From Flavobacteriales bacterium (GTDB lineage: Bacteria > Bacteroidota > Bacteroidia > UBA10329): a stretch of 64,000 bases of DNA. Positions 11,405 through 59,172 of this stretch are shown here, in pieces (the stretch's first letter is position 1; the number at the start of each line of letters is the position of its first letter). The stretch covers positions 7,950 through 71,949 of the forward strand of contig JAIOYP010000003.1 of assembly GCA_021741155.1 (NCBI GenBank), read 5' to 3'. Made by a program: the position numbers and the translations under genes. The notes under the pieces were generated by a model, which saw nothing but the letters and a program-made list of their open reading frames with translations, searched no databases and was not told where the DNA came from.

Positions 11405-11444
11405 TTTCACACCCCGCAGCTTTTGGGGTCATTTGTTTTTAATG

Positions 11445-11517
11445 AGCGGGAGACGAGATTCGAACTCGCGACCCTCAGCTTGGAAGGCTGATGCTCTACC
11501 AACTGAGCTACTCCCGC
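11445..11517 (-). tRNA. trnG: tRNA-Gly(TCC)
   Basis: GCGGGAGTAGCTCAGTTGGTAGAGCATCAGCCTTCCAAGCTGAGGGTCGCGAGTTCGAATCTCGTCTCCCGCT. Confidence 0.96.
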
Positions 11518-11536
11518 TTATAATTATTATTGTTGG

Positions 11537-11622
11537 TGGTGGGGAGAGAAGGATTCGAACCTTCGAAGGTATAAACCAACAGATTTACAGTCTGTCCTCG
11601 TTGGCCGCTTGAGTATCTCCCC
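11537..11622 (-). tRNA. trnY: tRNA-Tyr(GTA)
   Basis: GGGGAGATACTCAAGCGGCCAACGAGGACAGACTGTAAATCTGT..long variable arm..GGTTCGAATCCTTCTCTCCCCACCA. Confidence 0.96.
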
Positions 11623-11648
11623 GACACTATAAATATTTTCAAAGAACG

Positions 11649-11722
11649 AGCCGGTGGAGGGATTCGAACCCCCGACCAGCTGATTACAAATCAGCTGCTC
11701 TGGCCAACTGAGCTACACCGGC
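11649..11722 (-). tRNA. trnT: tRNA-Thr(TGT)
   Basis: GCCGGTGTAGCTCAGTTGGCCAGAGCAGCTGATTTGTAATCAGCTGGTCGGGGGTTCGAATCCCTCCACCGGCT. Confidence 0.96.
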
Positions 11723-13762: not shown

Positions 13763-13799
13763 AAAAAAATTCCAGCTAGTATCTCACTAACTGGAATTT
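13763..13799 (-). terminator. Terminator-like hairpin after rpsU
   Basis: - strand aaattccagttagt-gagat-actagctggaattttttt. Confidence 0.7.
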
Positions 13800-13826
13800 C
13801 GATATAATGTTTCAGAAGTTTAAAAA

Positions 13827-14021
13827 CTATCCTTCGTCTTGGATGCGGAGACCTTGTACGTAAGCAGCTTTCTTCATTTCTTTTCTACGCTCAACTGATG
13901 GCTTCACGTATTGCTTTCGGTTTCGAAGATCACGCATTGCGCCTGTTTTTTCAAACTTACGTTTGAATTTTTTCAGACTTTTTTCGATGCTTTCGCCTTC
14001 TTTAACTGGAATAATCAACAT
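13827..14021 (-). CDS. rpsU: 30S ribosomal protein S21
   Basis: MLIIPVKEGESIEKSLKKFKRKFEKTG..YVKPSVERR. Confidence 0.97.
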   Translation of the reverse strand: MLIIPVKEGESIEKSLKKFKRKFEKTGAMRDLRNRKQYVKPSVERRKEMKKAAYVQGLRIQDEG

Positions 14022-14101
14022 ATCTATTACCTCTATTTGTTCAAAACGGGTGGCAAAAATACATTTTTATCTGTACCGCAAACAACCCGAAGATTATTAT
14101 T

Positions 14102-15868: not shown

Positions 15869-15901
15869 AAGCGGCAAGTTAGCCGAAGAATTTGAAAGGA
15901 A

Positions 15902-17044
15902 TTAACCTTTGATTAAATTCTTGGCAATGACGACTTTCTGAATTTCGGAAGTGCCTTCTCCAATGGTGCAGAGCTTGCTATCTCGGAAGAACTTTTCTGC
16001 TGGGAAATCTTTAGTGAATCCGTATCCGCCAAAAATCTGTACCGCTTCTGTACTAGAACGTACGCAAACTTCGGAGGCGTAATATTTGGCCATGGCGGAT
16101 TTAACGGTTACGTTGAGTCCGCGGTTTTTCATATCGGCAGCTTGGAGTGTGAGTAGTTCTGCTGCTTCGTACTCTGTGTGCATATCGGCTAGTTTGAATG
16201 CGATGCCTTGGAAATTGGCGATTGGTTGTCCGAATTGCTCGCGCTCTTTGGCGTATTTGGTGGCTGCTTTTGTTGCGCCTTTGGCGATTCCGAGAGAAAG
16301 GGCGGCAATGGAGATCCTTCCGCCATCTAGGACTTTCATGGCTTGAATGAAACCATCGCCTTCTTTGCCAATCATGTTGCTTTGGTGAACGCGGCAGTCT
16401 TGAAAAATCATCTCAGCGGTTTCTGAGGCGCGCATTCCGAGTTTGTTTTCTTTTTTGCCTGAAGAGAAGCCGGGTGTTCCTCGTTCAACGGCAAAGGCTG
16501 TCATTCCATGAGAATCTCCTTTTTCGCCTGTTCTGGTCATTACTACTGCAATGTCGCCAGAGATGGCGTGGGTGATGAAGTTTTTGGCGCCATTGATGAC
16601 CCAGTATTCGCCATCTTTTACGGCTGTGGTGTTCATGCCGCCTGAGTCTGAGCCTGTGTTGTGTTCGGTAAGACCCCATGCGCCAATCCACTCGGCCGTG
16701 GCAAGTTTGGGTAACCATCGTTTTTTCTGCTCTTCGTTGGCGTGTGCTAGAATGTGGCCTGTGCAGAGTGAGTTGTGTGCTGCCATGGACAGGGCAATGC
16801 TTCCGCACACGGCACCTATTTCGGTGATGGCTGTAACGTATTCGAGGTAGGATAGTCCGGCACCTCCGTATTCTTGTGGAACGAGAACTCCCATGAGGCC
16901 GAGTTCGCCCATTTGCTTGAAAAGCGGAATTGGGAATTCTTGGCTTTCATCCCACTCCATCATTTTTGGGCGGATGTTTTTTTCTGCAAAATCGCGGCAC
17001 ATTTCCGCGATCATTTTTTGGTTCTCGTTTTGTGAAAAATCCAT
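15902..17044 (-). CDS. Acyl-CoA dehydrogenase
   Basis: [38 protein letters not shown]. Confidence 0.96.
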
Positions 17045-31334: not shown

Positions 31335-32687
31335 ATGGAACTCAATGCTCTCTCGGCCGTTTCGCCAATTGATGGGCGTTACCGAAGACACACCAATTCG
31401 CTTTCTGATTATTTCTCTGAAGCTGCGCTGATTAAGTATCGCGTACGGGTTGAAATCGAGTATTTCATACAGCTTTGCGAACTGCCTTTGCCGCAGTTGA
31501 AAGACTTCGACAAATCGCTATTTCCAACACTTAGAAAGATTTATTCGGAGATTTCTGAAGCCGATGCGCAGCGTGTAAAGGAGATTGAGAAAACCACCAA
31601 TCACGATGTGAAGGCTGTGGAATATCTCATCAAAGAGAAAATGGAAACGCTTGGGATTGGCGAGCAAATGGAGTTCGTGCATTTCGGGCTTACCAGCCAA
31701 GACATCAATAATACCGCCACTCCGTTAATGATGAAGGAGGCAACGGAGCAGGTTTACATTCCACTTTTAGATGAGTTAATTGCGAAGCTAAGGTCGTTGG
31801 CCACCGAGTGGAAGGATATTCCATTGTTAGCACGAACCCACGGACAACCAGCCTCACCAACCCGTATGGGAAAGGAAGTGTACGTTTTTGTGGAGCGATT
31901 AGAAGCCCAGAAAAAGCAGTTGCTGGCCATTCCCTTCTCTGCCAAATTCGGTGGGGCCACAGGAAATTTCAATGCGCATTTTGTCGCTTATCCTAAATTG
32001 GATTGGGTTGATTTCGGAAACAACTTTGTAAACGGAACGCTTGGGCTGACCCGCTCGCAGACCACCACGCAGATTGAACATTACGACAACATTGCCGCCT
32101 GGTGCGATGCACTACGCAGGATAAACACCATCATCCTCGACCTTGACCGTGATGTTTGGACCTACGTATCAAACGACCTTTTCAAGCAGAAAATAAAGGA
32201 AGGCGAGGTCGGTTCTTCGGCCATGCCACATAAAGTTAATCCTATTGATTTTGAAAATTCGGAAGGAAACATAGGTCTTGCCAATGCGCTTTTCGGCCAC
32301 TTGGCAGAGAAGCTGCCTGTTTCGCGTTTGCAGCGCGATTTGACCGATAGCACCGTCTTACGGAACATCGGTGTGCCGTTGGGATATACATTGATCGCGT
32401 TCCGATCTACGCTGCGCGGATTGGAGAAACTTCTTATCAATGAGGACAATATCCGCAGGGAATTGGAGAACAATTGGGTGGTGGTGGCCGAGGCCATACA
32501 AACCATCCTCAGAAGGGAAGGTTATCCGAAACCCTACGAGGCATTGAAAGCATTCAGCCGAACCAATGCCAAGTTGGATGAGAAGGCGATGCTAGCGTTT
32601 ATCGATTCGCTGAATATTTCGGAGGCTGTGAAAGTGGAGATGCGTGCGATAACGCCTTTCAATTATACGGGGCAACCCCTCCCCTGA
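31335..32687 (+). CDS. purB: Adenylosuccinate lyase
   Basis: Start MELNALSAVSPIDGRY at 31335; HFGLTSQDIN, GSSAMPHKVNPIDFEN; last codons lie inside a repeat unit. Confidence 0.98.
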   Translation: MELNALSAVSPIDGRYRRHTNSLSDYFSEAALIKYRVRVEIEYFIQLCELPLPQLKDFDKSLFPTLRKIYSEISEADAQRVKEIEKTTNHDVKAVEYLIKEKMETLGIGEQMEFVHFGLTSQDINNTATPLMMKEATEQVYIPLLDELIAKLRSLATEWKDIPLLARTHGQPASPTRMGKEVYVFVERLEAQKKQLLAIPFSAKFGGATGNFNAHFVAYPKLDWVDFGNNFVNGTLGLTRSQTTTQIEHYDNIAAWCDALRRINTIILDLDRDVWTYVSNDLFKQKIKEGEVGSSAMPHKVNPIDFENSEGNIGLANALFGHLAEKLPVSRLQRDLTDSTVLRNIGVPLGYTLIAFRSTLRGLEKLLINEDNIRRELENNWVVVAEAIQTILRREGYPKPYEALKAFSRTNAKLDEKAMLAFIDSLNISEAVKVEMRAITPFNYTGQPLP

Positions 32688-32812
32688 CCCCAACTGACCC
32701 CCTCTAACTCCCCCAAAGGGGGAGAACCGATGCCTCGTTTAAACTTTTGCTTTAATCTCCAATCAACGCACTCCGAATTCCCCTTCCCTTCGGGGAGGGG
32801 TTGGGGGAGGCC
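32676..32812. repeat. GC-rich palindromic REP-like doublet element (intergenic) plus a partial unit
   Basis: Partial unit 32676-32691, left hairpin ctccccc-aaa-gggggag (32698-32726), AT-richer spacer, inverted right hairpin 32774-32810; homologous to copies in hutU and pheT. Confidence 0.9.
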
Positions 32813-32813
32813 G

Positions 32814-33794
32814 TCAATACTCGCTCTTCTTCCTTTTTCGCAACCAGATCTTCTGCCCTGCAATGGGTTCTTCGCCCGGATTGAGCTCGTTGTGCTTATA
32901 GAGCTGCTTCATCAGAATGCCGTATTCCTGCGATATCCACCGTAGGGTTTCGCCTGAGGCCACCATATGGTAATCGTGGCCACGGTTGCGGTTGCGTTTG
33001 GGCTGTAGGTAAATCAATTCTCCCTCATCCAATGGCGCACCGTTCGGCTTGTCGTTGTACCTCAGTATTTGCGCTTTCCGAACTTGGGTTAGGCGCTCCA
33101 GCTTTTCGTATGTATCGCCTTCTTCTACTCTCACATAGCGAATATCATTTCGCAAATACATTTGCCGTTGCGATGTAGAAACGAATGCCTCTTGCGGATT
33201 ATCTGTATTGTGCTTACCTCCCTTTGAACCCTTATCCTTAGGGATTTCTCCTCCTTTAGGTGGGGTTTTCATTCGGTCATATTTGTCGAGTTCGTTCTCT
33301 TCAATGATTTTAATCAGCAATGCCGGATACTTGGGGTTTGTGGCATATCCCGCTTCTTTCAGCCCATGGGCCCATCCTTTGTAATCGGTTATTCTGAGTT
33401 TGAAAAGACCGGCATAACGGTCGCGGCCACTCAAAAATTCGGAATGATCGCGATAGCTTTCGAACACATTCTCGTACACACGAAAGCACTCGCCCTTGGA
33501 GTCATCATCCATGTGAAACTTCTTTCCTTCCCACATGCCGTGGCACTTGATACCGAAATGATTGTTGGCCTTTTGCGCCAGCGTGCTGTTGCCATCACCA
33601 CTTTCGAGGATTCCCTGCGCCAGCGTGATGCTTGCCGGAACGCCACTTATCAGCATTTCCTTTACAGCATAGGGCGCATACATTTCGATGTACTCTGCAC
33701 GGGTCAGTTTATCTGAAGGCTGCGCGAGGTTGCTGCTTTGAGCAACCGCCACCAGATGTAGTGTGATGAGTAATTGAGAGAAGATACCACGCAT
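32814..33794 (-). CDS. Glucosaminidase (GH73/FlgJ-like) with LysM domains
   Basis: ASITLAQGILES, NNHFGIKC, GYATNPKY, LysM HMVASGETLRWISQEYG. Confidence 0.93.
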   Translation of the reverse strand: MRGIFSQLLITLHLVAVAQSSNLAQPSDKLTRAEYIEMYAPYAVKEMLISGVPASITLAQGILESGDGNSTLAQKANNHFGIKCHGMWEGKKFHMDDDSKGECFRVYENVFESYRDHSEFLSGRDRYAGLFKLRITDYKGWAHGLKEAGYATNPKYPALLIKIIEENELDKYDRMKTPPKGGEIPKDKGSKGGKHNTDNPQEAFVSTSQRQMYLRNDIRYVRVEEGDTYEKLERLTQVRKAQILRYNDKPNGAPLDEGELIYLQPKRNRNRGHDYHMVASGETLRWISQEYGILMKQLYKHNELNPGEEPIAGQKIWLRKRKKSEY

Positions 33795-33866
33795 GAGCCA
33801 AAAGTAGATGCCGCAAACAGCCTAACGTTTAATGGGCCTTGATGTTTTAAACACGCTTGTGTTGAT

Positions 33867-34883
33867 TTAGACCAGACCTCTATGCTTCATTCCCATCCAA
33901 CCTTGCAGGCCGCCTGTATGGATGGCGAGGATGGTGGTTCCCTTGAGTAAGGGCGTGTCGCGGCATGCCCCTACAGATTGCTTGTTCAGAATCATATCAT
34001 AGATGCCGAACATCATTTTGCCGGTATAAATGGGGTCGAGGGGAATACCGGTGCGTTCGGTGAAACCGTTGATGAAAGCCATGAGTTCGGGTTTCATCTT
34101 GGCGTAGCCTCCGAAATGGTAGTTGGTTGACAGTCCATAGTCCATGGTCGATGGCGGTCGTAAAGCAGATTCTCCCATTAGTCTTTCAACGTCTTCTTTG
34201 AGAAAGCCGCCACCTTTCAAGACAGGAAAGCCGATCAATCGCTGATCCCGTTTCAAGGTGAGGGCCAATCCGGCAAGGGTGGTTCCTGTTCCAGCCGCGC
34301 AGCACACAACATCAAAAGGTTCCTCCACCTCGGTCAAAATTTCGGCACAGCCGCGCACACCAAAGCCGTTGGCACCCCCTTCGGGAATGATGAAACAGCG
34401 ACCGAAACGATTTTTCAACTCACCCCCTGCTCCACTCGCGGAGCCTTCCTCCTCTCTTGCAAGAAAGGGGGTGTTTGCCTCTGGCAGATGGGGGTGAGTC
34501 AATTTCCGGTAATCCTCACGGGAAACAAACACCAACCGCATATCATTCTCCCTAGCAAATTGCAGGGTTGGGTTGCTGGGGTCGTCCTCTCCGCGGATAA
34601 TGCCGATGCTTTCCATCCCCGCCTTTTTGCAGGCATAGGCCGTGGCGGCAATATGGTTGCTATACGCCCCTCCGAAGGTGAGGATGGTATGATGGTTCTG
34701 CTGAACGGCCTCCGAAAGATTGTATTTCAGCTTGCGCCACTTGTTGCCGCTTATGTGTTCATGGATAAGGTCGTCCCGTTTGATGAGCAAACGCACTCCG
34801 GTGCCATCCAACAGCGGGTCTTTCACCTCCTGAACAGGCAATCCGGCAGGTCTGTACGATTTTGCGTAATCAATGGCATCCAT
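33867..34883 (-). CDS. PLP-dependent ACC deaminase / D-cysteine desulfhydrase family protein (carries in-frame repeat insertions)
   Basis: IKRDDL..SGNKWRKLKY, TFGGAYSNH, PEGGAN, GTGTTLAG, LDPIYTGK, IHTGGLQG. Confidence 0.92.
   Translation of the reverse strand: MDAIDYAKSYRPAGLPVQEVKDPLLDGTGVRLLIKRDDLIHEHISGNKWRKLKYNLSEAVQQNHHTILTFGGAYSNHIAATAYACKKAGMESIGIIRGEDDPSNPTLQFARENDMRLVFVSREDYRKLTHPHLPEANTPFLAREEEGSASGAGGELKNRFGRCFIIPEGGANGFGVRGCAEILTEVEEPFDVVCCAAGTGTTLAGLALTLKRDQRLIGFPVLKGGGFLKEDVERLMGESALRPPSTMDYGLSTNYHFGGYAKMKPELMAFINGFTERTGIPLDPIYTGKMMFGIYDMILNKQSVGACRDTPLLKGTTILAIHTGGLQGWMGMKHRGLV
33947..33974 (-). repeat. GTAG-type REP hairpin inside the CDS
   Basis: - strand GTAGGGGCATG-CCGCGA-CACGCCCTTAC, read in frame as VGACRDTPL. 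Confidence 0.75.
34126..34160. repeat. Heptamer tandem run inside the CDS
   Basis: gttgaca gtccata gtccatg gtcgatg gcggtcg; read as RPPSTMDYGLST on the - strand. Confidence 0.6.
34418..34499. repeat. 82-bp element with terminal inverted repeats inside the CDS
   Basis: actcacccc...ggggtgagt ends; internal hairpins cctctcttgcaagaaaggg and tgcc-tct-ggca. Confidence 0.8.
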
Positions 34884-35150
34884 CGGGGCAAAGGAAGCAG
34901 AAAAGCGGGGGTGCAGAAATCATTCCCACACATAAGCAGATGGTTTTTTCTTGAGGGAGAACCGTTCCGGAACGTAAGCGGATCATTTTTTCTTACCAAT
35001 GAATTATTTATTTGAACCGATTAATTATTAATTGGTGTTTTCTTTATATTTATTGGCATCAATTCGGAATATTACAATACCTTTTTTTATATCATTCATT
35101 CCATATAAATAATAAATTGTTTCCATTTTAATTTTCTTGTAATCGATTTT

Positions 35151-35768
35151 ATGAAAAGTGACTTCATTCCGATAAAACTTGTTGATATAGATGCTTGGGA
35201 AGGTAGATTTTTAACAGCCCTTAACCAGCAGGCAGCATCTTTAGGCATCACACCTCAGCAGCTTATTGATATAACGCAGAAAATCACCAACCACCGAGAA
35301 GCCTATGTGGCCGCTGAGGAGGCTAAGAAGGTTGCCAAGAGTAAAGTGGCCCACATGCAGGCGCTTAAAGTGGATACGATACGCTCCATCCGCAAGATGG
35401 TGCGCCAGATAAAGAGCAGTCCGACCTATGCGTCCGCCAATGCTCATTCTCTTGGAGTGATCGGCCCAGAAGACAGCAAGGAGCTCACCAGCCCTAAACT
35501 TAAGGCACGGTCAGTTGGTGGCAGAGCCGTTATCAGTTACCGCAAATACCGCAGCCACGGAATCTACCTATATGGCAAGCGCGGCAACGAAACTAGCCTA
35601 ACCCTGCTTGCTGTGGATACCCGCAGCCCCTATGTGGATACGCGTCCAAACCTAGACCCTAACGCCCCCGAGCAGCGCGAATATGCTGCCCGATATATGC
35701 TCAATGATGAACCCGTGGGTCAAATGGGAAACATTCATTTGCTGCTAGTGGCCCCAGGAGACCATTGA
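35151..35768 (+). CDS. Hypothetical protein (helical N-domain plus predicted Fn3-like C-domain)
   Basis: DFIP..W N-terminal motif, coiled segment, LGVIGP linker, HGIYLY.KRG.E..LLAVDTRSPYVDTRP; preceded by an AT-rich 160-bp leader. Confidence 0.75.
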   Translation: MKSDFIPIKLVDIDAWEGRFLTALNQQAASLGITPQQLIDITQKITNHREAYVAAEEAKKVAKSKVAHMQALKVDTIRSIRKMVRQIKSSPTYASANAHSLGVIGPEDSKELTSPKLKARSVGGRAVISYRKYRSHGIYLYGKRGNETSLTLLAVDTRSPYVDTRPNLDPNAPEQREYAARYMLNDEPVGQMGNIHLLLVAPGDH

Positions 35769-35818
35769 GCCAAAACCTTCAGCGACCTATTCTTGTTTAC
35801 TTTGCAAACGTGAACGAG

Positions 35819-35998
35819 ATGGACGATTATTTCGGAAAACCGAAGCTTGACCCTGATGATTTTTACTACTCCAAAGAAGGCTACATCGTCTTTACGGAAA
35901 AGTATCTGCTCAAACGGGGTTACTGCTGCAAGAATAGTTGCAAGCATTGCCCGTATGGGTTTGATAGGAAAACGGGCAGGATAAAGCCCCTCCCCTGA
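35819..35998 (+). CDS. DUF5522 family small Cys-rich protein
   Basis: DFYYSKEGYIVFTEKYLLKRGYCCKNSCKHCPYG; start re-called at ATG 35819. Confidence 0.85.
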   Translation: MDDYFGKPKLDPDDFYYSKEGYIVFTEKYLLKRGYCCKNSCKHCPYGFDRKTGRIKPLP

Positions 35999-36026
35999 CC
36001 CCTCCCCAAAGGGGCGGGGAATTCGG
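35987..36026 (+). repeat. Single REP-like unit of the GC-rich family, containing the DUF5522 stop codon
   Basis: cccctcccctgacccctccccaaaggggcggggaattcgg. Confidence 0.88.
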
Positions 36027-36059
36027 ATGGCGTAGATTTGATTATTGACCAAGTGATAA

Positions 36060-38273
36060 ATGGATTTTAAGACCGCAGTTTCAGAAGGTATTCCTAAGCA
36101 ACTTCCAGAAAGACGCCCCCTTGATGCGAGCGTGAGCCACGCCCCCAAACGCAAGGATATTCTCAGTGTCGATGACAAAAAACTAGCGCTACGCAATGCC
36201 CTGCGCTATTTTCCCAAGGAATGGCACGCCCAGCTTGTCGCAGAATTTGCCAATGAACTGAAGGAATACGGCCGCATTTACATGTATCGGTTTATGCCCG
36301 AATATGAGATGCACGCACGGCCAATCTCACACTATCCGGCCAAGTGCCAACAGGCGGCTGCCATTATGCTGATGATTCAGAATAATTTGGATCCTGCCGT
36401 GGCGCAACATCCACAAGAACTGATTACCTACGGTGGAAATGGAGCCGTTTTTCAGAATTGGGCGCAATATCGCCTCACTATGAAATACCTTTCTGAAATG
36501 ACCGAGGCGCAAACTTTGGTGATGTACAGCGGACATCCTATGGGATTGTACCCGAGCCATAAAGATGCACCGCGTGTCGTTGTAACCAACGGCATGATGA
36601 TTCCGAACTACAGCAAACCAGACGATTGGGAGAAATTCAACGCGCTAGGCGTTACCCAATACGGACAGATGACGGCTGGTTCCTATATGTACATTGGTCC
36701 GCAGGGAATTGTGCATGGAACCACCATCACCGTGCTGAATGCAGTCCGGAAACTGACCTCCCCCAACCCCTCCAATGGAGGGGAGAAGCACTCCGATTTA
36801 ACTTTATCTAAAACATCAAATCAAGGCACCCCGAATTCCCCTTCCCTTCGGGGAGGGGTCAGGGGTGGGGTTGGTCTTCCTCTTTTTGTGACCAGCGGAC
36901 TGGGCGGCATGAGCGGAGCCCAGCCAAAGGCGGGCAACATTGCAGGAGTTGTGACCATCTGTGCTGAGATAAATCCGGCAGCAGCCGAAAAACGTCATTC
37001 GCAGGGTTGGGTAGATGAGTTGATTAATGATGTGGATGTGTGTATTGATACCGCTATCGGGTTTCAAGCAAAGAGAAAAGCCCGAAGCATTGCCTTCGTT
37101 GGTAATGTGGTTGATTTGTGGGAACGCCTAGCGGAACGAAACATTCACGTTGATCTGGGTTCAGACCAAACTTCCCTACATAATCCGTGGGCTGGTGGGT
37201 ACTATCCCGTTGGTTTGACTTATGAGGAAAGCAACGCATTGATGGCGAAAGAACCAGAGGTGTTCAAGAAACGTGTACAAGAAACCCTTCGCAGACAGGT
37301 AATAGCCATCAACAAATTGGCGGCAAACGGTATGTATTTCTTCGATTATGGGAATGCATTTCTCCTAGAGGCGGGAAGAGCTGAGGCTGATATATGGACC
37401 TCCCACAACCCTTCCAAAGGAGGGGAGTTGCGCTCCGAACAAGCTTCATCTACACTTTCCAATCAAGGCACCAGTTCTCCCCCATTGGGGGAGTTAGAGG
37501 GGGCTGTTGGTGGGGCCGCTGGGGACGGTGCTTATCGCTACCCAAGCTATGTTCAAGACATAATGGGCCCCATGTGTTTCGATTACGGTTTTGGGCCATT
37601 TCGCTGGGTCTGTGCTTCTGGAAAAGAAGAAGACCTACAAGCCACCGATATCATTGCCGCCCAAGTCATAGAAGAAATGCTTTTGAGCGCGCCTGCTGAA
37701 ATTCGATCTCAACTACAAGACAACTTGCGTTGGGTTCAAGAAGCGCAAAAAAACAAGTTAGTAGTTGGGTCGCAAGCACGCATATTGTATGCAGATGCCG
37801 AGGGAAGAATCAAAATTGCAGCTGCATTTAATCAAGCAATCAAAGAAGGAAAAATTGGTCCCGTGGTTTTGGGTCGAGACCACCATGACGTATCAGGTAC
37901 AGATTCGCCCTACCGAGAAACGTCAAATATTTACGATGGCTCGCAATTTACTGCAGACATGGCAGTTCAGAATTTTGTTGGCGATGCCTTTCGTGGAGCC
38001 ACTTGGATAAGTCTTCACAACGGTGGTGGCGTTGGTTGGGGAGAAGTAGTAAACGGTGGGTTCGGAATGCTTTTGGATGGTTCTGACGATGCCGACCGCA
38101 GGCTCAGAATGATGCTTCATTGGGATGTAAACAACGGAATTTCGCGCAGAAGCTGGGCTCGAAACGAGGGGGCAATCTTTGCCGCCAAACGTGCAATGCA
38201 GCAAGAACCGAATTTGAAAATTACCATCCCCAACTTGGTTGATGATAGCCTCTTAGAAAATCTCGAAAAATAA
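36060..38273 (+). CDS. hutU: Urocanate hydratase (long Bacteroidota type) with two in-frame repeat insertions
   Basis: ELITYGGNG, YGQMTAGSYMYIGPQGIVHGT, GLGGMSGAQPKA, SDQTSLHN, FFDYGNAF, GRDHHDVSGTDSP, HNGGGVGWG. Confidence 0.97.
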   Translation: MDFKTAVSEGIPKQLPERRPLDASVSHAPKRKDILSVDDKKLALRNALRYFPKEWHAQLVAEFANELKEYGRIYMYRFMPEYEMHARPISHYPAKCQQAAAIMLMIQNNLDPAVAQHPQELITYGGNGAVFQNWAQYRLTMKYLSEMTEAQTLVMYSGHPMGLYPSHKDAPRVVVTNGMMIPNYSKPDDWEKFNALGVTQYGQMTAGSYMYIGPQGIVHGTTITVLNAVRKLTSPNPSNGGEKHSDLTLSKTSNQGTPNSPSLRGGVRGGVGLPLFVTSGLGGMSGAQPKAGNIAGVVTICAEINPAAAEKRHSQGWVDELINDVDVCIDTAIGFQAKRKARSIAFVGNVVDLWERLAERNIHVDLGSDQTSLHNPWAGGYYPVGLTYEESNALMAKEPEVFKKRVQETLRRQVIAINKLAANGMYFFDYGNAFLLEAGRAEADIWTSHNPSKGGELRSEQASSTLSNQGTSSPPLGELEGAVGGAAGDGAYRYPSYVQDIMGPMCFDYGFGPFRWVCASGKEEDLQATDIIAAQVIEEMLLSAPAEIRSQLQDNLRWVQEAQKNKLVVGSQARILYADAEGRIKIAAAFNQAIKEGKIGPVVLGRDHHDVSGTDSPYRETSNIYDGSQFTADMAVQNFVGDAFRGATWISLHNGGGVGWGEVVNGGFGMLLDGSDDADRRLRMMLHWDVNNGISRRSWARNEGAIFAAKRAMQQEPNLKITIPNLVDDSLLENLEK
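36752..36870. repeat. REP-like doublet inserted in frame in hutU (insertion 1)
   Basis: Left hairpin cccctcc-aat-ggagggg; right unit 36832-36870 identical over 39 nt to 53705-53743. Confidence 0.92.
37397..37505. repeat. REP-like doublet inserted in frame in hutU (insertion 2)
   Basis: Left unit cctcccacaacccttccaaaggagggg; right unit 37475-37503 is the reverse complement of 32698-32726 at 28/29 nt. Confidence 0.92.
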
Positions 38274-38305
38274 AAGCAGCGGAAGTATTACTACTTCCGC
38301 TGCTT
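38274..38305. terminator. Bidirectional terminator between hutU and the PID-CTERM-like gene
   Basis: 14-bp stem aagcagcggaagta-ttac-tacttccgctgctt. Confidence 0.82.
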
Positions 38306-38319
38306 CTTTATTCATTCAG

Positions 38320-38502
38320 TTACTTCTTATTGCGATTCAGCCGAACCGCACCGTATGCAACTCCTCCAACCATAAGCACCATGCTTAAAGCATCTAATGG
38401 TGCGCCTATAAGAGGTTGGCTAGGTGGCGGGGTTTGAGCAAATGCTTGCGCAATTCCCAACATCATGACCCCAATAAAGGTAATTCCAATTTTAAATTTC
38501 AT
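38320..38502 (-). CDS. PID-CTERM-like mini protein (signal peptide, Pro-rich linker, sorting TM segment)
   Basis: AFA-QTPPPSQPLIG-APLD-ALSMVLMVGGVAYGAVRL-NRNKK; 11 nt downstream of the T9SS cargo gene. Confidence 0.8.
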   Translation of the reverse strand: MKFKIGITFIGVMMLGIAQAFAQTPPPSQPLIGAPLDALSMVLMVGGVAYGAVRLNRNKK

Positions 38503-38513: not shown

Positions 38514-41500
38514 TTATTTGATCACCTTTTGAGAAGAAATCTCCCCGTTTGCAATCATTCTTACTACATAAACTCCCATAGACAGGCTAGACACATCGAC
38601 TTTTGCTAACCCGTTGGAGAAACCAACTGACCCAGAAGTCCAAACCATTCTGCCACTCATATCAAAAATCTCCAAAGCAGCCATCTCAACATTAGCTTTC
38701 GAAACCGTCAACATATCATTGTTGATGAACGCATGCATTGGATTCATTTGTACATCATACATACCCGTTACACTTGGCGTAGCAAAATGTAGGAAGAAAC
38801 GATCGTTGTAAGTAACCGCATTCGTTTGGAACACATATGAACCTTCATGTAAGTCTTGGAAAACATTCAAATGACGGTCTTCTAAGTAAATGATGTCGCT
38901 TTCCATATTGAAATTCGTATCCAGGCTTATAGTGACCATAGATTGAGTATTCGAAATATATCCTAACGGAACAATTCTATCAGGGAATAACGATCCATAA
39001 GCTTGAGTCACGTATGGAGTATTATCATCCATTAGACTGTAAAAACTATGCCCAGAGCCTAGATTAATTTTTGGAGTATCGTAAGACCAATCTGGTCCAT
39101 CTGTACCGTCCTCCAAAAATCCAATAGCCATTTGATTATATCGGCCTTCAGCATTAACTGCAGATAGCCATAACTTCTTAGCATCGCTTTGTCTAAATAG
39201 CATGTTTGTATTGCCAGCAACTCGCATTGCGTTGGTAAACTGAACACTGCCAGCTCCGTTCACTCTAACTTCAAAACCTTGAGCAGATCCAATTACTGGT
39301 CCCGGAGTGTTTCCACCGCCACCAGCAGTTTGCAACGTTGGATTCCAAACCGCAAAATCTTGCGAATCGTACGGAGTTGTTGCTGGACTATCCCATAGGT
39401 AAATTGAGTTTACAGAAAGGATTCCGCTGTTAGCTGACAAGAATGTTGCAGCGTCTATTCCACTTGGATAAGGATTACCAACCAAATTGAACGGAACTCC
39501 AGGCAACATTGGATCAGGATTGTTAAAATACTGAACCGGAATACTAACGTTACCGTTATTAACAGTACCAGTAAATGTTTCTACAGTGCTGGCAAATGCT
39601 GCATAGCCTTTACCAGGAATCATAGTAGCACCTGGTGCAACCCAACCTGGATCATGCAAATCATCAAACGGATCCGCAGTACTCAACTGTGGGTCGTAGG
39701 CATATGCCTGCCCAAAGATGTTTGTTGAAACAGTAGTTATTGGAGAACTCCAGAAATCGAAAACAGTACTTCCATTACGAGTTACGTTGTAGATACCTGT
39801 TCCTACTCGAGTACTTCCTGTGGCCTGTACCAAACTACCGCCAGAGGCAACATTTATAGTTCCATTATTTGTTAAAACACCTGTAACCGACAGAGAATGT
39901 CCACCTTGAATACTAACCGATGAACCAGTTGCAAGCGTAAGGGTTGCAATTGAAGCTGCCTCGTCAATAATTGGGAAGTTACCTCCAACTGGTGTGGTAG
40001 GAATGAACGCAACACCATTTGATGCTGGAACGGTTCCTTCACTCCAGTTACCATTGGTAGCCCAATCGTTAGCTACAGCGCTACCAGTCCATTCATTCAC
40101 ACCGCAGGTACGAGAGATTGTAAATGTTCCTGTTGTGGTGCTACCAGATAACCAATACGAGATATAAACATAATACCTTGTACCTAGAACAGTGGTAAAG
40201 GTGGCAGACTCACTTCCACCAGCATCATCAATGCAATTGACGTTAGACAGAGCACCACAAGTTCCTCTAGTAATCGACAATTCGATGTCAAATGTGGCGT
40301 CACAAGTGACCGTAGTACTGTATCCATTTCCAACAAACGTATACCAAACTCCAAATTGTCCCATGCTACACATTCCAATTGCACCAGAAACGAATGCTGG
40401 CTCAGGTCGAGACCATTCGGTAGTACCAGCCAAACCAGATGTTCCGCAAGGAAGCGAGATTGCGTTAGCGCACTCATCATTAGCCGGTGCTGGTGGCAAC
40501 GTTTTAATACAAATGTCTTGTTGCGAAAACGCCCCTGAACCTGCCCAAGTATACATTCTCAGGTAGTACGTATTTCCAGGAGTAAGACCGTATAAAATAC
40601 TTCCAGCGTTATCGTCACTACATACAATTGAAGTCATAGAAGAAGCACAAGCAGAACTAAATACCTGCCAGTAAATATCAGTGGATCCAGCAACGTATGT
40701 AAACTCTATGCTTAGTGCCGTTTCTGGGGCTACAAATGAGAACCATACATCATCATCAGGGTTGCCCGAGTTGGATGTACACGAACCCGTAGGTGTAACT
40801 CCTGAGTTTGTACCATTCAAAGTAGTTTGGTTTGAAAGTGTAGCACAAGTCTGGTTAGTAGGAATAACCGGGAATGGTGTTGCTGTGCTACAGTTGTCGT
40901 TTGCAGGCGGAACTCCCGATATAGTCCTTAGATTTCCCAATGCAGTACCAGTGGGGGTCACAACTGGAGTGGTAGTAACCGCTATGTTTCCAACTGGTGT
41001 TATCCTTGCGGTAATGGTTCGTCCAACCGTAGCCGTTCCGCTTACATCAGCAACCAAAAGATATCTTCGATTAGTACTGATTCCTGTTTGACCTGCTATA
41101 CCAAATGTCATGCTCGCAGCAAGTGCTTGCGCAGCGGTCGAAGCAAGCAAATCCGTTCCTACCTCGTACGTACCATTTGCATTCACATCTTGATAAATTC
41201 TAAAATTAGAAAGGTCTGCAGTTGTGGCTGTTCCAGTGGTTGTATAGGTTACAGAAGTCAGCGATGCTGATACGCAACCTGGAGCTAATTGAAAACCAGA
41301 GATAACCACATTGTTTGAGGACTGACCAATATTTCCTGCTGCAGGTGTTCCTGTATTACTAAGAACCAAAGCAGGGGTAGGACTAGTTACCTGAATATTG
41401 AAGGTTCCTCCTAAACCATCCCAATCCTGAACCATGACGTAATAAGTAGTTCCTGCAACTACTGTGGCAGAAGCTGTTTCGGAGGAAGTACTGAAACTAG

Positions 41501-44500
41501 TACCTGTACCAATCAATGGGGGATTAGTAGTAGTAAATGTACCTGGACACAACGTATAAATTCCTAAGTCGTAGTCGGCAGGGAAGCCATATCCATTTGT
41601 GGTAACCGTATGCACTCCACTACAGGTCGGTGTAAACGAAAACCAAACGTCATTGAGTGTACCTCCTGTCATAGGAGTTGCTCCGTTTGCTGTACCTGAA
41701 ACCGAAGGGGCATCAACAGTTAATGCTACCACACCGGCACAATCATCATTGGCAGGAGGTGGCGGTGGAACGTTTAGGCAGAATTCGAAATTCGAAACAG
41801 TTGATGTTGTACTTGAATACGTGTGAGTTCTAACCAAATACGTGTTTCCAGGAGTAAGACCTGTAACCGAACCAGACTCAGGGTCTGAACAAAGCAAACT
41901 GGTTCCTCCGCAAGCATCAAAGAATTGGAATACGCGGTCTGTACTTCCTGAAATGGTGTTAGTAACGCTGAAATTAATGGTTGTTTCACCAGCAGGCATT
42001 ACAAAGCTGAACCACACATCATCATTAGCTCCAGTACCAGCACAAGCGGCTAATGATTCTGTTGCCGAAGCTGTATTAACAGTTACTGAGGCACATGTTC
42101 CATCGGATGGAATAGTTGGGAATGCAATGGCAGCTGCACACTCATCATTTGCAGGAGCTGGCGGTGGAACGCTCAGACAGAAATCGAAATTCGAAACAAT
42201 CGATGTTGTACTTGAATAGGTGTGAGCTCTAACCCAATACGTGTTTCCAGGAGTAAGACCTGTAACCGAACCAGATTCAGGGTCTGAACAAAGCAAACTG
42301 GTTCCTCCGCAAGCATCAAAGAATTGGAATACGCGGTCTGCACTTCCTGAAATGGTGTTAGTAACGCTGAAATTGACTGTTGTTTGACCAGCAGGCATTA
42401 CAAAGCTAAACCACACATCATCATTGGCTCCAGAACCAGTACAAGCAGCTAATGATTGAGTTGCCGAAGCTGTATTAACAGTTACTGAGGCACATGTTCC
42501 ATCGGATGGAATAGTTGGGAATGCAATGGCAGCTGCACACTCATCATTTGCTGGTGGTGGTGGCGGTACACTCAAGCACAAGTCGAAACTTGTTGCAGAA
42601 GCATTGAAAAAGCTATAGGTTCTAAGAACATAGGTGTTTCCTGCAACCAATCCTGTCCACGTTCCAGATTCTGGATCGTTACAGAACAAACTTGTTCCGC
42701 CACAAGCACTGAACAATTGGAACATTCTATCAGTTGAACCAGAAATGTTTGTTGTAGAATAGTTTACGGATGTATTTCCTGCAGGCACTACAAACGTGAA
42801 CCATTGATCGTCATCTGCCGTACCCGAACAACCAGCTAAAGATTGTGTATAGCCAGTATTATTAACGGTAACTGTTGCACAGTTTCCGTTGGTCGGAATG
42901 ATTGGGAATGCGTATGCTCCTCCACAATCGTCATTATTGGTTACAAGCGCATACGGACCAGCCCAAGCACTATAGCTGCTTCCGCCACAGAATGATCTCA
43001 CGTAAACATTATAAGATGTATTTACCGTAAGGCCAGTTACGTTTGCAGTAACAACTCCAGCAGCAGTAGAACCAGAAGCAACAGCTCCTGCAATTCCAGG
43101 TGTTAAATCTGTTCTCACTTCCCACTGATAACCACCGCTTGGCGCGTTGGTTGGAGCTGTCCAATTGATGGTAGCGGTTGTAGCCAAAATGTTTGTAGAA
43201 GCAACAATGGTTGGTACTTCGCAAGCCGGTGGAGCCACACAGTTTAATTGAACTGAAAAAGGCGTGTATCCACTTGAATTACATGTTCCAGAAACATCCG
43301 AGTTAATTGCAAAGGAAATATTTCCCGTAGTGCTTGTAATCGTAGATACACCAGAGTAATCTGCCAAACCTCCGCCAGTAAGTGCTCCATAAAGAATGTT
43401 TCCTGTGGCATTAAGACCATCATAAACAACTACCTCATCGCAGCACGTTTCAACGCCTCCAGCTAAGAAGGTAAGTGTAGCGTAATCTCCTGGAGTGCTA
43501 ACCGAAAAGTTAAGCATAACCTGAAGAGAACTAGTTTGATTGTAGCAAAGACCGCTAACCACATCACCGCAAGCTGCAGGAGTAGTAAAACTATATGCGG
43601 TAGACCATGTGCTGTAGCCACTTCCGCCACAATCGCTTCTAACAAATACGTAATAAGTGGTATTGCTTGATAAGCCTGTAATTGCTGCAGATGTACCGCT
43701 TTCATCCGTTCCTGTGTTAGCTGCAGTGCTAGGGGTTACATTCGAGGTAGAAACAACATATTCGTAACCAGCACTCGGAGCAGGGCTCGGTGCTGTCCAG
43801 TTAATAGTGGCTGTTGTGCCAGTTACAGACGTTGGAGCTGTAACGGTTGGTGTAAGACAAGATGGAATGGCCTCAACCACAAAATCATCTAAATGAAAAT
43901 CAATATCTGGACTAGTGGATGCAGTAGTAGCAATGAAAGCTACCCTAACAACGCCACTGTAACCAGTGAGGTCAATCGTTTCGGTTGCACCTGTATTGCT
44001 GTATGTTGCTACACCTGTATAGGTTCTTAGCACGTTTGCCGCAGCCCAAGTACTTCCACCATCCGTAGAAATAACCACTTTAACAACATGTGTTCCCAAA
44101 GTTGCAACAGCACCTGTACCAAGATAAGTAGTAACCGCCATTCGGTAACTCACTCTGTAAAGACCTGGAGTGACACCCAAATCTATGGGTTGAGAAATAA
44201 TCCAATCGTCTGAATCAGTTCCGTAAAGATTGGTCCTTACGCCCACATTGGTACCTGTGTTGGCGAAACCTGTTGAACTCAACCATTCGCTATTGGCTGT
44301 GTTGGCACTGACGGTTCCAGAAAACAGGGTTGAAGACTCTGACCAGCAAATTGGATTTGGTGCCGAACCCGTGAACGTTGCAAACGTTTGTACCGCTGTA
44401 GGTGCTGCTTCTGCTGCACAAGGCGTTGTAAAAGTTACCGCGCTACTCCAAGAGCTAAAAACACTGCTTCCGCAATCGGATCTAACATAAATGCTATAAG

Positions 44501-45455
44501 TAGTGTTTGCCGTAAGTCCAGTTACGTTGGCAGTCAATACTCCTGCCGCTACAGAACCACTTGCTTGCAAACCCGTGGCACCGCTACCTGCCGCACCGCT
44601 CGTACGAACTTCCCACTGATATCCTCCGCTTGGCGCAGGACTAGCCGCATTCCAATTGAGCGTAGCCGAAGTTGACGTTAATGCCGTTGCCGCAGTAACC
44701 GCTGGAGCCGCACATGATGGTGGAGTCCAAGTGAATGTTAGTCCTGATGCAGGAACAGTTCCAGCGTTAGCGGAACGGAAATACATGATATGGTTATTCG
44801 CTGTTCCTTGAATACTATTTATCCAACTACCACCAGCAGCTGCAATCCTCCGGTTGTTAACATTCGTGGCAATTGCGTTGGTAGGTCCCTTCAAGCCTAC
44901 TTGCGGATACGCGGTATTGTTACCTGGAGCAATAGTTCCGCCATAAACAACTTGAATGACGTTAGTTAAGGTGTTCAACCTTATTTGGAACGAAATGATC
45001 TCACCCGCGATGCCGTAGCGTCTTACATCCTGAAATTGCACCACGAATTCGTTACCAACCAACTCATACCGTATCTCCGGTGAACCGGAAGCCGCATTGT
45101 TAAGGTCGGCTCCAAAAGCTGAAATAATGCCCCCAGTTGCATTGGTAGCAGAACTTATTGGAGTATAGTTGCCAGTTGATGTGTATGTACCAAAGGCAAT
45201 ATGTCCATTTGCATTGATTCCCAGACTAGTGTAGGCATTGCCATCGTAGGTAAATGAAGGAATGGTGATTGCCCCAGAATTACCATCGTCAAACGTTCCA
45301 GATAGATACACCGTACCCCCTGTAATTGGTGTGTAAGTACCCGCGGTTTGACTGAAGGTGTAAGTACTGGCCACCTGCGCCTTGGCCTGCCAAGCCCCGA
45401 AAACGGAAAGGAGAATAAGAAAGAGGCCTGCGAATTGAGTAGAGACTTTTTTCAT
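38514..45455 (-). CDS. Large T9SS type A sorting-domain surface protein (Fn3, CUB-like and Cys-containing NDxC repeats)
   Basis: Start re-called at MKKVSTQF (45455); signal peptide AKA-Q; three Fn3 (ANVTGLT.NT.Y..YVRS.CG); C-terminal domain LEIFDMSGRMV..SSLSMGVYVVRM..SQKVIK. Confidence 0.92.
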   Translation of the reverse strand: MKKVSTQFAGLFLILLSVFGAWQAKAQVASTYTFSQTAGTYTPITGGTVYLSGTFDDGNSGAITIPSFTYDGNAYTSLGINANGHIAFGTYTSTGNYTPISSATNATGGIISAFGADLNNAASGSPEIRYELVGNEFVVQFQDVRRYGIAGEIISFQIRLNTLTNVIQVVYGGTIAPGNNTAYPQVGLKGPTNAIATNVNNRRIAAAGGSWINSIQGTANNHIMYFRSANAGTVPASGLTFTWTPPSCAAPAVTAATALTSTSATLNWNAASPAPSGGYQWEVRTSGAAGSGATGLQASGSVAAGVLTANVTGLTANTTYSIYVRSDCGSSVFSSWSSAVTFTTPCAAEAAPTAVQTFATFTGSAPNPICWSESSTLFSGTVSANTANSEWLSSTGFANTGTNVGVRTNLYGTDSDDWIISQPIDLGVTPGLYRVSYRMAVTTYLGTGAVATLGTHVVKVVISTDGGSTWAAANVLRTYTGVATYSNTGATETIDLTGYSGVVRVAFIATTASTSPDIDFHLDDFVVEAIPSCLTPTVTAPTSVTGTTATINWTAPSPAPSAGYEYVVSTSNVTPSTAANTGTDESGTSAAITGLSSNTTYYVFVRSDCGGSGYSTWSTAYSFTTPAACGDVVSGLCYNQTSSLQVMLNFSVSTPGDYATLTFLAGGVETCCDEVVVYDGLNATGNILYGALTGGGLADYSGVSTITSTTGNISFAINSDVSGTCNSSGYTPFSVQLNCVAPPACEVPTIVASTNILATTATINWTAPTNAPSGGYQWEVRTDLTPGIAGAVASGSTAAGVVTANVTGLTVNTSYNVYVRSFCGGSSYSAWAGPYALVTNNDDCGGAYAFPIIPTNGNCATVTVNNTGYTQSLAGCSGTADDDQWFTFVVPAGNTSVNYSTTNISGSTDRMFQLFSACGGTSLFCNDPESGTWTGLVAGNTYVLRTYSFFNASATSFDLCLSVPPPPPANDECAAAIAFPTIPSDGTCASVTVNTASATQSLAACTGSGANDDVWFSFVMPAGQTTVNFSVTNTISGSADRVFQFFDACGGTSLLCSDPESGSVTGLTPGNTYWVRAHTYSSTTSIVSNFDFCLSVPPPAPANDECAAAIAFPTIPSDGTCASVTVNTASATESLAACAGTGANDDVWFSFVMPAGETTINFSVTNTISGSTDRVFQFFDACGGTSLLCSDPESGSVTGLTPGNTYLVRTHTYSSTTSTVSNFEFCLNVPPPPPANDDCAGVVALTVDAPSVSGTANGATPMTGGTLNDVWFSFTPTCSGVHTVTTNGYGFPADYDLGIYTLCPGTFTTTNPPLIGTGTSFSTSSETASATVVAGTTYYVMVQDWDGLGGTFNIQVTSPTPALVLSNTGTPAAGNIGQSSNNVVISGFQLAPGCVSASLTSVTYTTTGTATTADLSNFRIYQDVNANGTYEVGTDLLASTAAQALAASMTFGIAGQTGISTNRRYLLVADVSGTATVGRTITARITPVGNIAVTTTPVVTPTGTALGNLRTISGVPPANDNCSTATPFPVIPTNQTCATLSNQTTLNGTNSGVTPTGSCTSNSGNPDDDVWFSFVAPETALSIEFTYVAGSTDIYWQVFSSACASSMTSIVCSDDNAGSILYGLTPGNTYYLRMYTWAGSGAFSQQDICIKTLPPAPANDECANAISLPCGTSGLAGTTEWSRPEPAFVSGAIGMCSMGQFGVWYTFVGNGYSTTVTCDATFDIELSITRGTCGALSNVNCIDDAGGSESATFTTVLGTRYYVYISYWLSGSTTTGTFTISRTCGVNEWTGSAVANDWATNGNWSEGTVPASNGVAFIPTTPVGGNFPIIDEAASIATLTLATGSSVSIQGGHSLSVTGVLTNNGTINVASGGSLVQATGSTRVGTGIYNVTRNGSTVFDFWSSPITTVSTNIFGQAYAYDPQLSTADPFDDLHDPGWVAPGATMIPGKGYAAFASTVETFTGTVNNGNVSIPVQYFNNPDPMLPGVPFNLVGNPYPSGIDAATFLSANSGILSVNSIYLWDSPATTPYDSQDFAVWNPTLQTAGGGGNTPGPVIGSAQGFEVRVNGAGSVQFTNAMRVAGNTNMLFRQSDAKKLWLSAVNAEGRYNQMAIGFLEDGTDGPDWSYDTPKINLGSGHSFYSLMDDNTPYVTQAYGSLFPDRIVPLGYISNTQSMVTISLDTNFNMESDIIYLEDRHLNVFQDLHEGSYVFQTNAVTYNDRFFLHFATPSVTGMYDVQMNPMHAFINNDMLTVSKANVEMAALEIFDMSGRMVWTSGSVGFSNGLAKVDVSSLSMGVYVVRMIANGEISSQKVIK
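41761..42558. repeat. 399-bp tandem duplication (133-aa domain x2) within the T9SS protein
   Basis: Anchors 41761/42160 and 42091/42490 are both 399 bp apart; about 25 differences counted by eye. Confidence 0.92.
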
Positions 45456-45840
45456 GAAGTTCGAATTAAAATAAAGGGATAGTTGCGAAAAATAATGGGT
45501 ATTCGGCTGTTTGTTTAAGCGTATTGGCAATCTGCAGTACGTGATTTACGCAAATTGGACTGTGAAATAACGAAATTTTATCATTGATGTAACATGCCTA
45601 TTGCATTTATTTTTCTGGCAGACCACTAAATCTATCCTTTCAGCGAACATTTTTGTTCGACAAAACTGATTTTAGGCTTATTCGGTATTCGGTAACCTGC
45701 TATGAATTTTAATGTGATTTTACCCATCCAAGTCTTCGAGGCTTATCTATTTGGTTTTGCAATGCGTTATTGGCACTTAGAAAACCTCAATACCAGAGCG
45801 CGAGTACCAAGCGAAATAGGAATCAATTACTTTCACATCC

Positions 45841-52660: not shown

Positions 52661-52980
52661 GTGTTGAACAATATGCGGTGGTACTGATCAACCTTGACCC
52701 AACAATAGGAAGTGAGATCAAAAAGACCCGTCCATGCTTGATCATCTCTCCAATCGAAATGAACCAGCACCTACGAACCATAGTTATTGCACCCTTGACC
52801 ACCACCATGCGCAAATATCCTTCGCGCGTCAAAGTGCATTTCTCGGATAAGGAAGGTATGATCGCATTGGACCAAATTCGCACCATTGACAAGCAGCGAA
52901 TCATCAAAACTTTAGGCGGCATCAAACCAAGTGAAATAAAAAATGTGAAAGAGGTATTGATGGAAACGTATGTACGCTAA
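52648..52980 (+). CDS. PemK/MazF-family mRNA interferase toxin
   Basis: NLDPTIGSEIKKTRPCLIISP, DQIRTIDKQR; start 52648 (ATG) or 52657 (TTG). Confidence 0.92.
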   Translation: MGRLSVEQYAVVLINLDPTIGSEIKKTRPCLIISPIEMNQHLRTIVIAPLTTTMRKYPSRVKVHFSDKEGMIALDQIRTIDKQRIIKTLGGIKPSEIKNVKEVLMETYVR

Positions 52981-59094: not shown

Positions 59095-59172
59095 TGGTGG
59101 GAAATGAGGGATTCGAACCCCCGACCCCCTCGGTGTAAACGAGGTGCTCTGAACCAACTGAGCTAATTTCCC
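59095..59172 (-). tRNA. trnV: tRNA-Val(TAC)
   Basis: GGGAAATTAGCTCAGTTGGTTCAGAGCACCTCGTTTACACCGAGGGGGTCGGGGGTTCGAATCCCTCATTTCCCACCA. Confidence 0.97.

Follow-up and report, generated by a model that had tools for sequence, protein, structure and literature searches.

In-frame palindromic repeats are, to our knowledge, established in textbooks only for Rickettsia, whose Rickettsia palindromic elements (RPEs) are rich in AT, with neither an autonomous partner nor a mechanism known to us. The subject here is an insertion of comparable form within hutU, the urocanate hydratase gene, of a Flavobacteriales-like lake bacterium; it occupies positions 37395-37523 of a 64,000-nucleotide (nt) stretch of DNA (positions 7,950 to 71,949 of contig JAIOYP010000003.1, assembly GCA_021741155.1), hereafter the window, and is termed insertion 2. 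This segment is probably a nuclease-less miniature of a family of DUF559-bearing elements, which end in inverted hairpins with a mirrored G-rich arm and reside in frame in variable protein loops. The DUF559-bearing in-frame family is widespread and apparently undescribed so far, and the window copy is one ordinary member of it: a literature search covering few subscription journals turned up no account of DUF559 elements with hairpin termini, nor of inserts of this kind in Bacteroidota, and DUF559 was not found as a mobile in-frame element in the literature that mentions it.

RPEs (Ogata et al. 2000, as listed in Delihas 2011, PMC3184786) are palindromic repeats of ~105-146 bp that are multicopy, lie in frame within genes, including essential ones, and also occupy intergenic sites, all of which recalls the repeats in the window. 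Judged by description, composition and end structure, the window family differs in that it is found in Bacteroidota and other groups rather than in Rickettsia, and possesses hairpin ends made of C and G runs with a mirrored G-arm, exchangeable modular units and a full-length form bearing DUF559. Elements built around homing endonucleases (inteins, group I introns and free-standing homing endonuclease genes; for the Vsr-like family, Dassa 2009, PMC2677866; for I-Bth0305I, Taylor 2011, PMC3239194) are similar in other respects: the window family has, in its full-length forms, a putative nuclease of the Vsr/PD-(D/E)xK clan, occurs patchily but at matching positions of a given conserved gene across distant taxa, exceeds the synonymous conservation of its hosts and includes nuclease-less 'mini' forms, as a homing cycle would lead one to expect. 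However, the window family is devoid of splicing machinery and, judging from its sequence, appears to be kept in the mature protein as a loop or extra domain; it also has terminal inverted hairpin units, and its miniatures are found at unrelated and intergenic sites as well.

Cyanobacterial small dispersed repeats are reportedly tiny hairpins that insert beside or into one another, and sometimes into genes, forming composite arrays, and we know of no reported link between them and a nuclease; the window family differs from them in both sequence and taxa. Miniature transposable elements with inverted repeats (MITEs) are matched by the window element in length (below ~400 bp), in having no transposase open reading frame (ORF) and in possessing terminal inverted repeats, but the window element shows no target-site duplication, and no transposase-encoding parent insertion sequence (IS) with matching ends was found for it. 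Likewise, two inverted units around a spacer resemble the REPIN doublet of repetitive extragenic palindromes (REPs), and solo units resemble single REPs, in the REP/REPIN-RAYT system (Bertels & Rainey 2011, PMC3116915; Di Nocera 2013, PMC3733652). The window units nevertheless lack a GTAG or CGTC head, as read from their sequences, and no associated Y1 transposase was seen, the window and loci not having been screened with the Y1_Tnp model; the unit-flanked ORFs that were found encode DUF559. Moreover, whereas REPs are extragenic by definition, about half of the unit copies in low-GC genomes (33/68) are intragenic and in frame.

Anatomy of the hutU insert and its copies

The host gene encodes an intact urocanate hydratase (E 3.5e-244 against PDB 6uek) of 737 amino acids (aa), or 2211 nt, compared with ~661 aa and ~1983 nt in ~80 orthologues from GTDB genomes, from which insertion 2 is missing. 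Alignment to solved urocanases yields three blocks separated by gaps at residues ~234-274 and ~449-490, and a six-sequence alignment places the additional residues in two loops. No protein identical to the window HutU was on record in an exact-protein look-up. The initial annotation had assigned the second insert to 37397-37505 on the basis of the peptide AEADIW-TSHNPSKGGELRSEQASSTLSNQGTSSPPLGELEGAVGGAAGDG-AYRYPSYVQD; this is exactly the product of the ORF, and the interval lies inside the insert, but ends ~18 nt short of the boundary given by the empty allele. Insertion 2 corresponds to residues W446-G488, substituting three host residues (LKE of the empty allele) for a net gain of 40 aa with no stop codon; SEQASSTLSNQGTSSPPLGELEGAVGGAAGDGAYR is an example of the peptide encoded. 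A Logan contig, assembled independently from the source lake-water metagenome run, covers 36845-38300 with 0 differences from the window, so the insertion is not an artefact of the assembly of this metagenome-assembled genome (MAG). The hutU gene, the parts of insertion 2 and the other copies in the window are as follows, with rc denoting a reverse complement.

36060-38273, forward strand: hutU (urocanate hydratase) ORF, 737 aa, intact, with two in-frame inserts
37395-37523, forward strand: insertion 2, whole segment of 129 nt in hutU loop 2, in frame, delimited against the empty allele
37397-37427: left terminal unit of insertion 2, type A inverted, with the complement of the outer second G-arm first, GACCTCCCACAA CCCTTCC AAA GGAGGGG AG
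37428-37474: spacer of insertion 2, ~47 nt, AT-richer, ending in AATCAAGGCACC
37475-37503: right terminal unit of insertion 2, type C, TTCTCCCCCATTGGGGGAGTTAGAGGGGG = CTCCCCC ATT GGGGGAG TTA GAGGGGG
37504-37523: G-rich tail of insertion 2 (CTGTTGGTGGGGCCGCTGGG), a shared right boundary, homologous to sequence 3' of unit B in the L200 orthologue
36756-36875, forward strand: insertion 1, hutU loop 1, residues T233-G272, arranged as rc(unit A)-spacer-unit B
35984-36045, reverse strand: half element, one B-like unit and adjoining arm, just 5' of the hutU start codon
32673-32812: intergenic copy, partial unit plus rc(unit C)-spacer-unit B, located where purB and the glucosaminidase gene converge
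53626-53780, reverse strand: pheT copy, unit A plus a whole element, in frame, in the essential beta subunit gene of Phe-tRNA synthetase

The window thus holds five copies of one repeat family, of which a full copy follows the plan rc(unit)-spacer-unit, with a spacer of ~47 nt, a total length of ~110-140 nt and no ORF of its own. Each unit comprises a C-rich arm of 7-9 nt, a 3-nt loop, a complementary G-rich arm, a linker of 2-3 nt and an outer second G-rich arm. Three subtypes are distinguished by these arms: A (CCCCTCC/GGAGGGG/GGGGGAGG), B (CCCCTTCCC/GGGGAGGGG/GGGGTGGGG) and C (CTCCCCC/GGGGGAG/GAGGGGG), which were observed in the pairings A+B, A+C and C+B. The spacer of insertion 2 is homologous to those at 36786-36837, 53659-53710 and 32727-32779, and its left unit is found again at 36757 and 53748, with 0 matches in 100 shuffles. 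The right unit had been said to be the left unit of the copy at 32698, and there is indeed an inverted match at 32698-32726 with one mismatch, again with 0 matches in 100 shuffles, that widens to 43 nt at 88% identity.

Among 90 distinct units with an asymmetric arm, gathered from all loci and phylogenetically non-independent, the outer G-arm was fitted better as a mirror of the inner G-arm in 57 cases and as a direct copy in 11, with 22 ties; examples of mirror arms in the window lie at 36838-36871 and 37476-37503. Unit B (GGGGAGGGGTCAGGGGTGGGG) is also a canonical G-quadruplex (G4) motif, and it is possible, from these sequence features, that the unit ends form an intramolecular triplex or a switch between G4 and hairpin. 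The hairpins of the units were predicted through single-stranded DNA folding of each copy; whole-element energies were similar to those of shuffled sequences (z -0.15 to -1.8) and were not used as evidence, because the composition is itself self-complementary.

Two related contigs, L200 (22 kb) and L201 (16.5 kb), lack the intergenic and pheT copies and so allow filled and empty sites to be compared directly. The intergenic copy occupies the gap between the stop codons of purB and the glucosaminidase gene, which abut in both of these syntenic contigs; at 32673-32691, its partial unit supplies the final codons and stop of purB (…TGQPLP* compared with …TGV* in L200), a small C-terminal extension. 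The pheT copy, an in-frame three-unit insert (ETSPNPSKEGKQAPPLTPPRREGEFAVTRSDDSGNVKSERTSPPLEGAGADG) in the ORF at 52977-55565 on the reverse strand, takes the place of the short loop GLSGKEK found in the PheT of L200. The same pheT site is occupied in L001, a related MAG, and in three JGI contigs, with the opposite internal orientation; the interior of the window insert is inverted relative to the element at this site in L001, L203, L204 and L206. In L201, pheT was called as two ORFs of 688 and 150 aa (13675-16194), where no unit was detected. Both hutU loops are empty in L003, P0011, P0016, P0031 and P0041. No target-site duplication was found at any junction of the intergenic, pheT or hutU copies in filled and empty comparisons, a few host codons being substituted at the coding sites, and no conserved target motif was seen at the junctions.

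Each of the three window copies that lie within genes is in frame and has no stop in the frame used, while most of their other frames contain stops, and with the GT1 gene in L002 there are four instances of such non-disruptive residence (two in hutU and one in pheT being the others). Open frames of at least 250 codons enclose 33 of the 68 oriented copies of unit B in low-GC genomes; four of the six possible frames are used, and the use of both orientations argues for an element acting at the level of DNA over an RNA signal. The units, composed solely of C and G, hold almost no stop codons, which would enable the element to sit in frame. From the sequence, we infer that insertion 2 is transcribed and translated as a flexible loop, rich in Pro, Gly and Ser, that is tolerated by urocanase.

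Probable full-length relatives encoding DUF559

Outside the window, DUF559 ORFs are found between inverted units of types B and C, arranged as in the window copies. The 836 aa HutU protein P0083 has a 175-aa in-frame insert in loop 1 consisting of a unit peptide, a DUF559 domain (PF04480, E 1e-31) and a second unit peptide, and this domain was used as a tblastn query against all fetched loci. DUF559 was found near the unit in 13 of ~117 loci that had been fetched solely for the unit-B 21-mer, mostly within ~50-160 nt, against a rough estimate of ~3e-4 for the chance expectation at a random genomic point. Similarly, scanning for the unit at the right of insertion 2, unit C, recovered at least 120 loci, nearly all from Bacteroidota, and in 4 of 120 DUF559 lies no more than 80 nt from the unit. 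What the longer elements carry between their matching ends is a DUF559 endonuclease-like domain instead of a transposase of any family.

The full-length layout is host, rc(unit 1), ~60 nt, DUF559, ~50 nt, unit 2, host, with the outer G-arms facing outward; at the unit-B loci the two ends carry unequal unit subtypes, as do the copies in the window, and stand-alone DUF559 ORFs have unit-encoded peptides at both N and C ends. In-frame hosts include hutU, where both Lutibacter L119 and P0083 have unit-DUF559-unit in loop 1; the methionine synthase gene metH (L106, L120, L135 and L160), in one of which (L135) Pfam places DUF559 between the B12-binding_2 and B12-binding domains; tgt, encoding tRNA-guanine transglycosylase (L094 and L156); and acetyl-CoA synthetase, where in L275 the DUF559 domain is bracketed by rc(unit C) and unit C, and the 32-nt terminal inverted repeat, which ends in unit C, is perfect. 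Such occupancy of the same site in divergent hosts is patchy, involving the MetH linker in Ignavibacteriaceae and a Bacteroidetes MAG, and the Tgt site in two Saccharibacteria. PF04480 matches in the full-length relatives range from E 1e-31 to 1e-35, and the DUF559 domain of P0083 has the stretches FRRQ, DF and E.DG..H in common with the closest structure, 3hrl. DUF559 has been grouped with Vsr and I-Bth0305I in the PD-(D/E)xK clan (Steczkiewicz 2012, PMC3424549). The family is large, with 3396 matches at E<1e-10 among the candidates scored.

A metagenome scan for the left end and spacer of insertion 2 recovered five loci, among which there was no full-length relative of the window subfamily. 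An exact 27-mer of unit B and its flank was present at just two loci in the GTDB representatives, so the window genome itself falls outside that collection.

Several further arrangements were observed. Seven Chryseobacterium genomes (L025, L030, L034, L037, L041, L057 and L062) have a weaker DUF559-like ORF (E 1e-7 to 1e-10) ~200-750 nt upstream of hutU, which begins at 3001 in these loci, echoing the half element 5' of hutU in the window and L200. In the MetH of two Chitinophagales (L133 and L110), an in-frame DUF559 element occupies a second site, in the activation domain, and its flanking hairpin unit has ~30-40 extra nt between the outer G-arm and the hairpin. One Saccharibacteria MAG (L087, L095, L114, L115, L121, L125, L126 and L143) harbours a high-copy, genome-specific, ~60-nt perfect palindrome built from the same hairpin, and one delta-proteobacterial MAG (L088, L103, L129, L134, L140, L149 and L184) a high-copy, likewise genome-specific composite of two hairpins with the spacer AATAAAGCGGAATGAGGTCT.

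Recurrence in hutU and the rest of the window

Exchange of the right unit, and the recurrence of loops 1 and 2 as targets, are both evident at hutU. The initial annotation regarded insertion 2 as an independent second hit with a different right-unit subtype, and this holds: it is in a different loop from insertion 1, with which it shares no more than 79% identity over its left 76 nt, and its right unit is of type C instead of B. It had further been suggested that units are shuffled modularly between elements. Compared as DNA, the orthologous inserts in loop 2 of the window, L201 and L200 have a common left boundary, left unit, spacer and right flank, and they differ in the right unit, which is C in the window, B in L201/P0002 and A'+B in L200/P0001; such differences within an otherwise shared insert support modular exchange.

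Close HutU relatives (70-90% identity, 657-748 aa) were recovered from a search of 5.8 billion proteins. In 30 such relatives both loops carry many states, including empty alleles (RKIGAENRTPLF in loop 1, ADILKEDGSFIY in loop 2), solo units, two- and three-unit composites and inverted copies. Aequorivita, Maribacter, Croceivirga, Lutibacter, Vicingaceae and other Bacteroidota have solo units of several sequence types in these two loops. Of the two causes suggested for the proximity of the inserts, local hopping or a hotspot, the second is therefore favoured: copies are clustered in the window, with three of five in or just upstream of hutU, but every unit in L200 and L201 also lies within or beside hutU, L200 likewise having a unit at the position equivalent to the upstream half element, and the same loops are occupied in distant Bacteroidota. 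The clustering thus reflects a hutU-specific hotspot rather than local hopping.

The inserts also differ from their host gene in conservation, as the following comparisons indicate.

Window against L200, host hutU: 79-82% nucleotide identity; 42-46% at fourfold degenerate sites
Window against L200, insertion 1: 95% nucleotide identity; 28/29 fourfold degenerate sites
Window against L201, left unit and spacer of insertion 2: 82% nucleotide identity; too few fourfold degenerate sites
Window against L200, left unit and spacer of insertion 2: 70% nucleotide identity; too few fourfold degenerate sites

Similarly, the solo unit in hutU loop 2 has a mean identity of 93% across nine Flavobacteriia loci (Aequorivita, Croceivirga, Lutibacter, Maribacter and other MAGs), next to upstream codons that are 63% identical and a highly conserved downstream coding stretch that is 81% identical. 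The inserts are thus far better conserved than neutral host sites. They may postdate the divergence of their hosts and have been delivered repeatedly to one site (recent site-specific re-invasion), have been made uniform by gene conversion from other copies, or be under constraint on their nucleotides.

The hutU stop codon (38271-38273) falls within a 21-nt inverted repeat at 38267-38312 (86% complementarity, 4-nt loop) that continues downstream of the gene; this is likely to be the intrinsic terminator of hutU. The gene is followed by a reverse-strand ORF (38514-45530) for a 2338-aa protein secreted by the type IX secretion system, with four GBD_T9SS_assoc stretches, fn3, a Por_Secre_tail and internal tandem repeats of ~399 nt (41722-42420) that are 92% identical. 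A cluster of tRNA genes (Trp, Thr, Gly, Tyr and Thr) at 9927-11722, beside a tuf/rpoB-type region, and a single tRNA-Val gene at 59095-59172 have no repeat units nearby.

Competing origins and significance

If insertion 2 is a miniature of a DUF559-bearing element, its spread and maintenance might be explained by a putative DUF559 nuclease, supplied in trans; with empty sites or units cleaved by it, the element would be copied in through repair or gene conversion in a homing-like manner; units could be swapped through recombination between copies at the conserved ends and spacer. This proposal is based on the kinship of DUF559 with Vsr and I-Bth0305I (PMC3424549), the recurrence of elements at the same sites, the existence of nuclease-less forms and the conservation of the element relative to its host. 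A broader and more tentative joint reading, possible but rather doubtful when taken as a whole, would see these in-frame homing elements as a new class of selfish element. In it, a DUF559/Vsr-like gene bracketed by inverted C/G hairpin units, which would encode stop-free Pro/Gly/Ser linkers, colonises permissive loops (in HutU, MetH, Tgt, Acs and PheT) and is kept in the mature protein; it may decay to miniatures and solo units exchanged by gene conversion, and the mirrored third arm might fold as a purine-motif triplex or G-quadruplex recognised by the nuclease or by repair machinery.

A number of observations weigh against the derivation of insertion 2 from such elements. Neither the 64-kb window nor any of four related contigs (L001, L002, L200 and L201) has a DUF559 gene, so that a trans-acting nuclease has to be assumed in this genome. 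The spacer of the miniature resembles the sub-terminal sequence of the full-length elements only weakly (GCRCTCCGATTTAAC compared with GCRGATCCGATTTTAT). The same miniature occurs at unrelated sites, in pheT, in the GT1 gene of L002 and between genes, and hence reaches new sites too, which a strictly site-specific nuclease does not explain. The flanks of insertion 1 are only 89% and 73% identical over ~26 nt and are not unusually conserved, which argues against the long co-conversion tracts of classical homing. Furthermore, the nuclease activity of DUF559 is putative, its sole structure, 3hrl, is a structural-genomics entry, and an AlphaFold2 model of the 737-aa HutU, built from a 30-sequence alignment, has a mean pLDDT of 56, with the inserts disordered, as is much else; it is too poor to prove surface exposure of the insert and was not used.

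In a rival reading, the units and miniatures would form a repeat family of REP/REPIN or MITE type in its own right, mobilised by a conventional transposase, with DUF559 genes being secondary parasites or cargo that favour landing between or next to such hairpins. This is the strongest alternative, yet an unlikely one. In its favour, most loci lack a nearby DUF559 (104 of the ~117 unit-B loci and 116 of the 120 unit-C loci), ORF-less spacers of 170-220 nt lie between the same units in L216, L225 and L239, and REP sequences are documented as IS targets (Delihas 2011, PMC3184786). However, no transposase was seen beside any copy examined, though neighbouring genes were not systematically screened for them, and neither target-site duplications nor the GTAG or CGTC tag are present. 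In addition, DUF559 lies symmetrically between inverted units, at a constant ~50-160 nt, in five host genes and several phyla, a placement that looks like the termini of an element and not like random landing in repeats.

It is very improbable that the inserts are intron- or intein-like intervening sequences removed after transcription or translation. Their sites in conserved genes are as expected of inteins and group I introns, and hairpin ends could in principle set an RNA structure, but the intragenic copies are in frame and stop-free, which would be needless if the RNA were spliced, and their presence within genes in both sense and antisense orientations argues against a signal in RNA. No Rfam family was matched, a scan of 32000-38500 at a permissive E-value giving chance-level matches only and no intron; likewise, intein splice motifs are absent, no Hint/intein domain was detected when the insert and host were scanned with Pfam, and 40 aa is far below the size of a Hint domain. 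Least credible of all is that the segments are low-complexity loop expansions, produced locally by slippage or template switching, or assembly artefacts: loops are prone to indels, snap-back synthesis could yield C/G-run hairpins and the window comes from a MAG, but near-identical units and spacers recur at five unlinked positions of the window, in either orientation and with intergenic DNA included, filled and empty sites are clean, the independent assembly reproduces insertion 2, and the same 21-mer is found at more than 118 genome loci against ~1 expected from a uniform-composition estimate.

With insertion 2 read as a miniature of the DUF559-bearing family, in-frame palindromic repeats are now found in free-living Bacteroidota together with a candidate driver, a DUF559 nuclease located between the same ends, and solo units and full-length forms reach Ignavibacteria, Saccharibacteria and others. 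As well as inflating and fragmenting gene calls and breaking short-read assemblies at repeats, the inserts could serve as strain markers. The system opens to experiment the movement of the elements, their preference for the loops of certain enzymes and the addition of peptide segments or domains to proteins. If the proposal is true, it would provide a biological role for DUF559, a very large family without known function.

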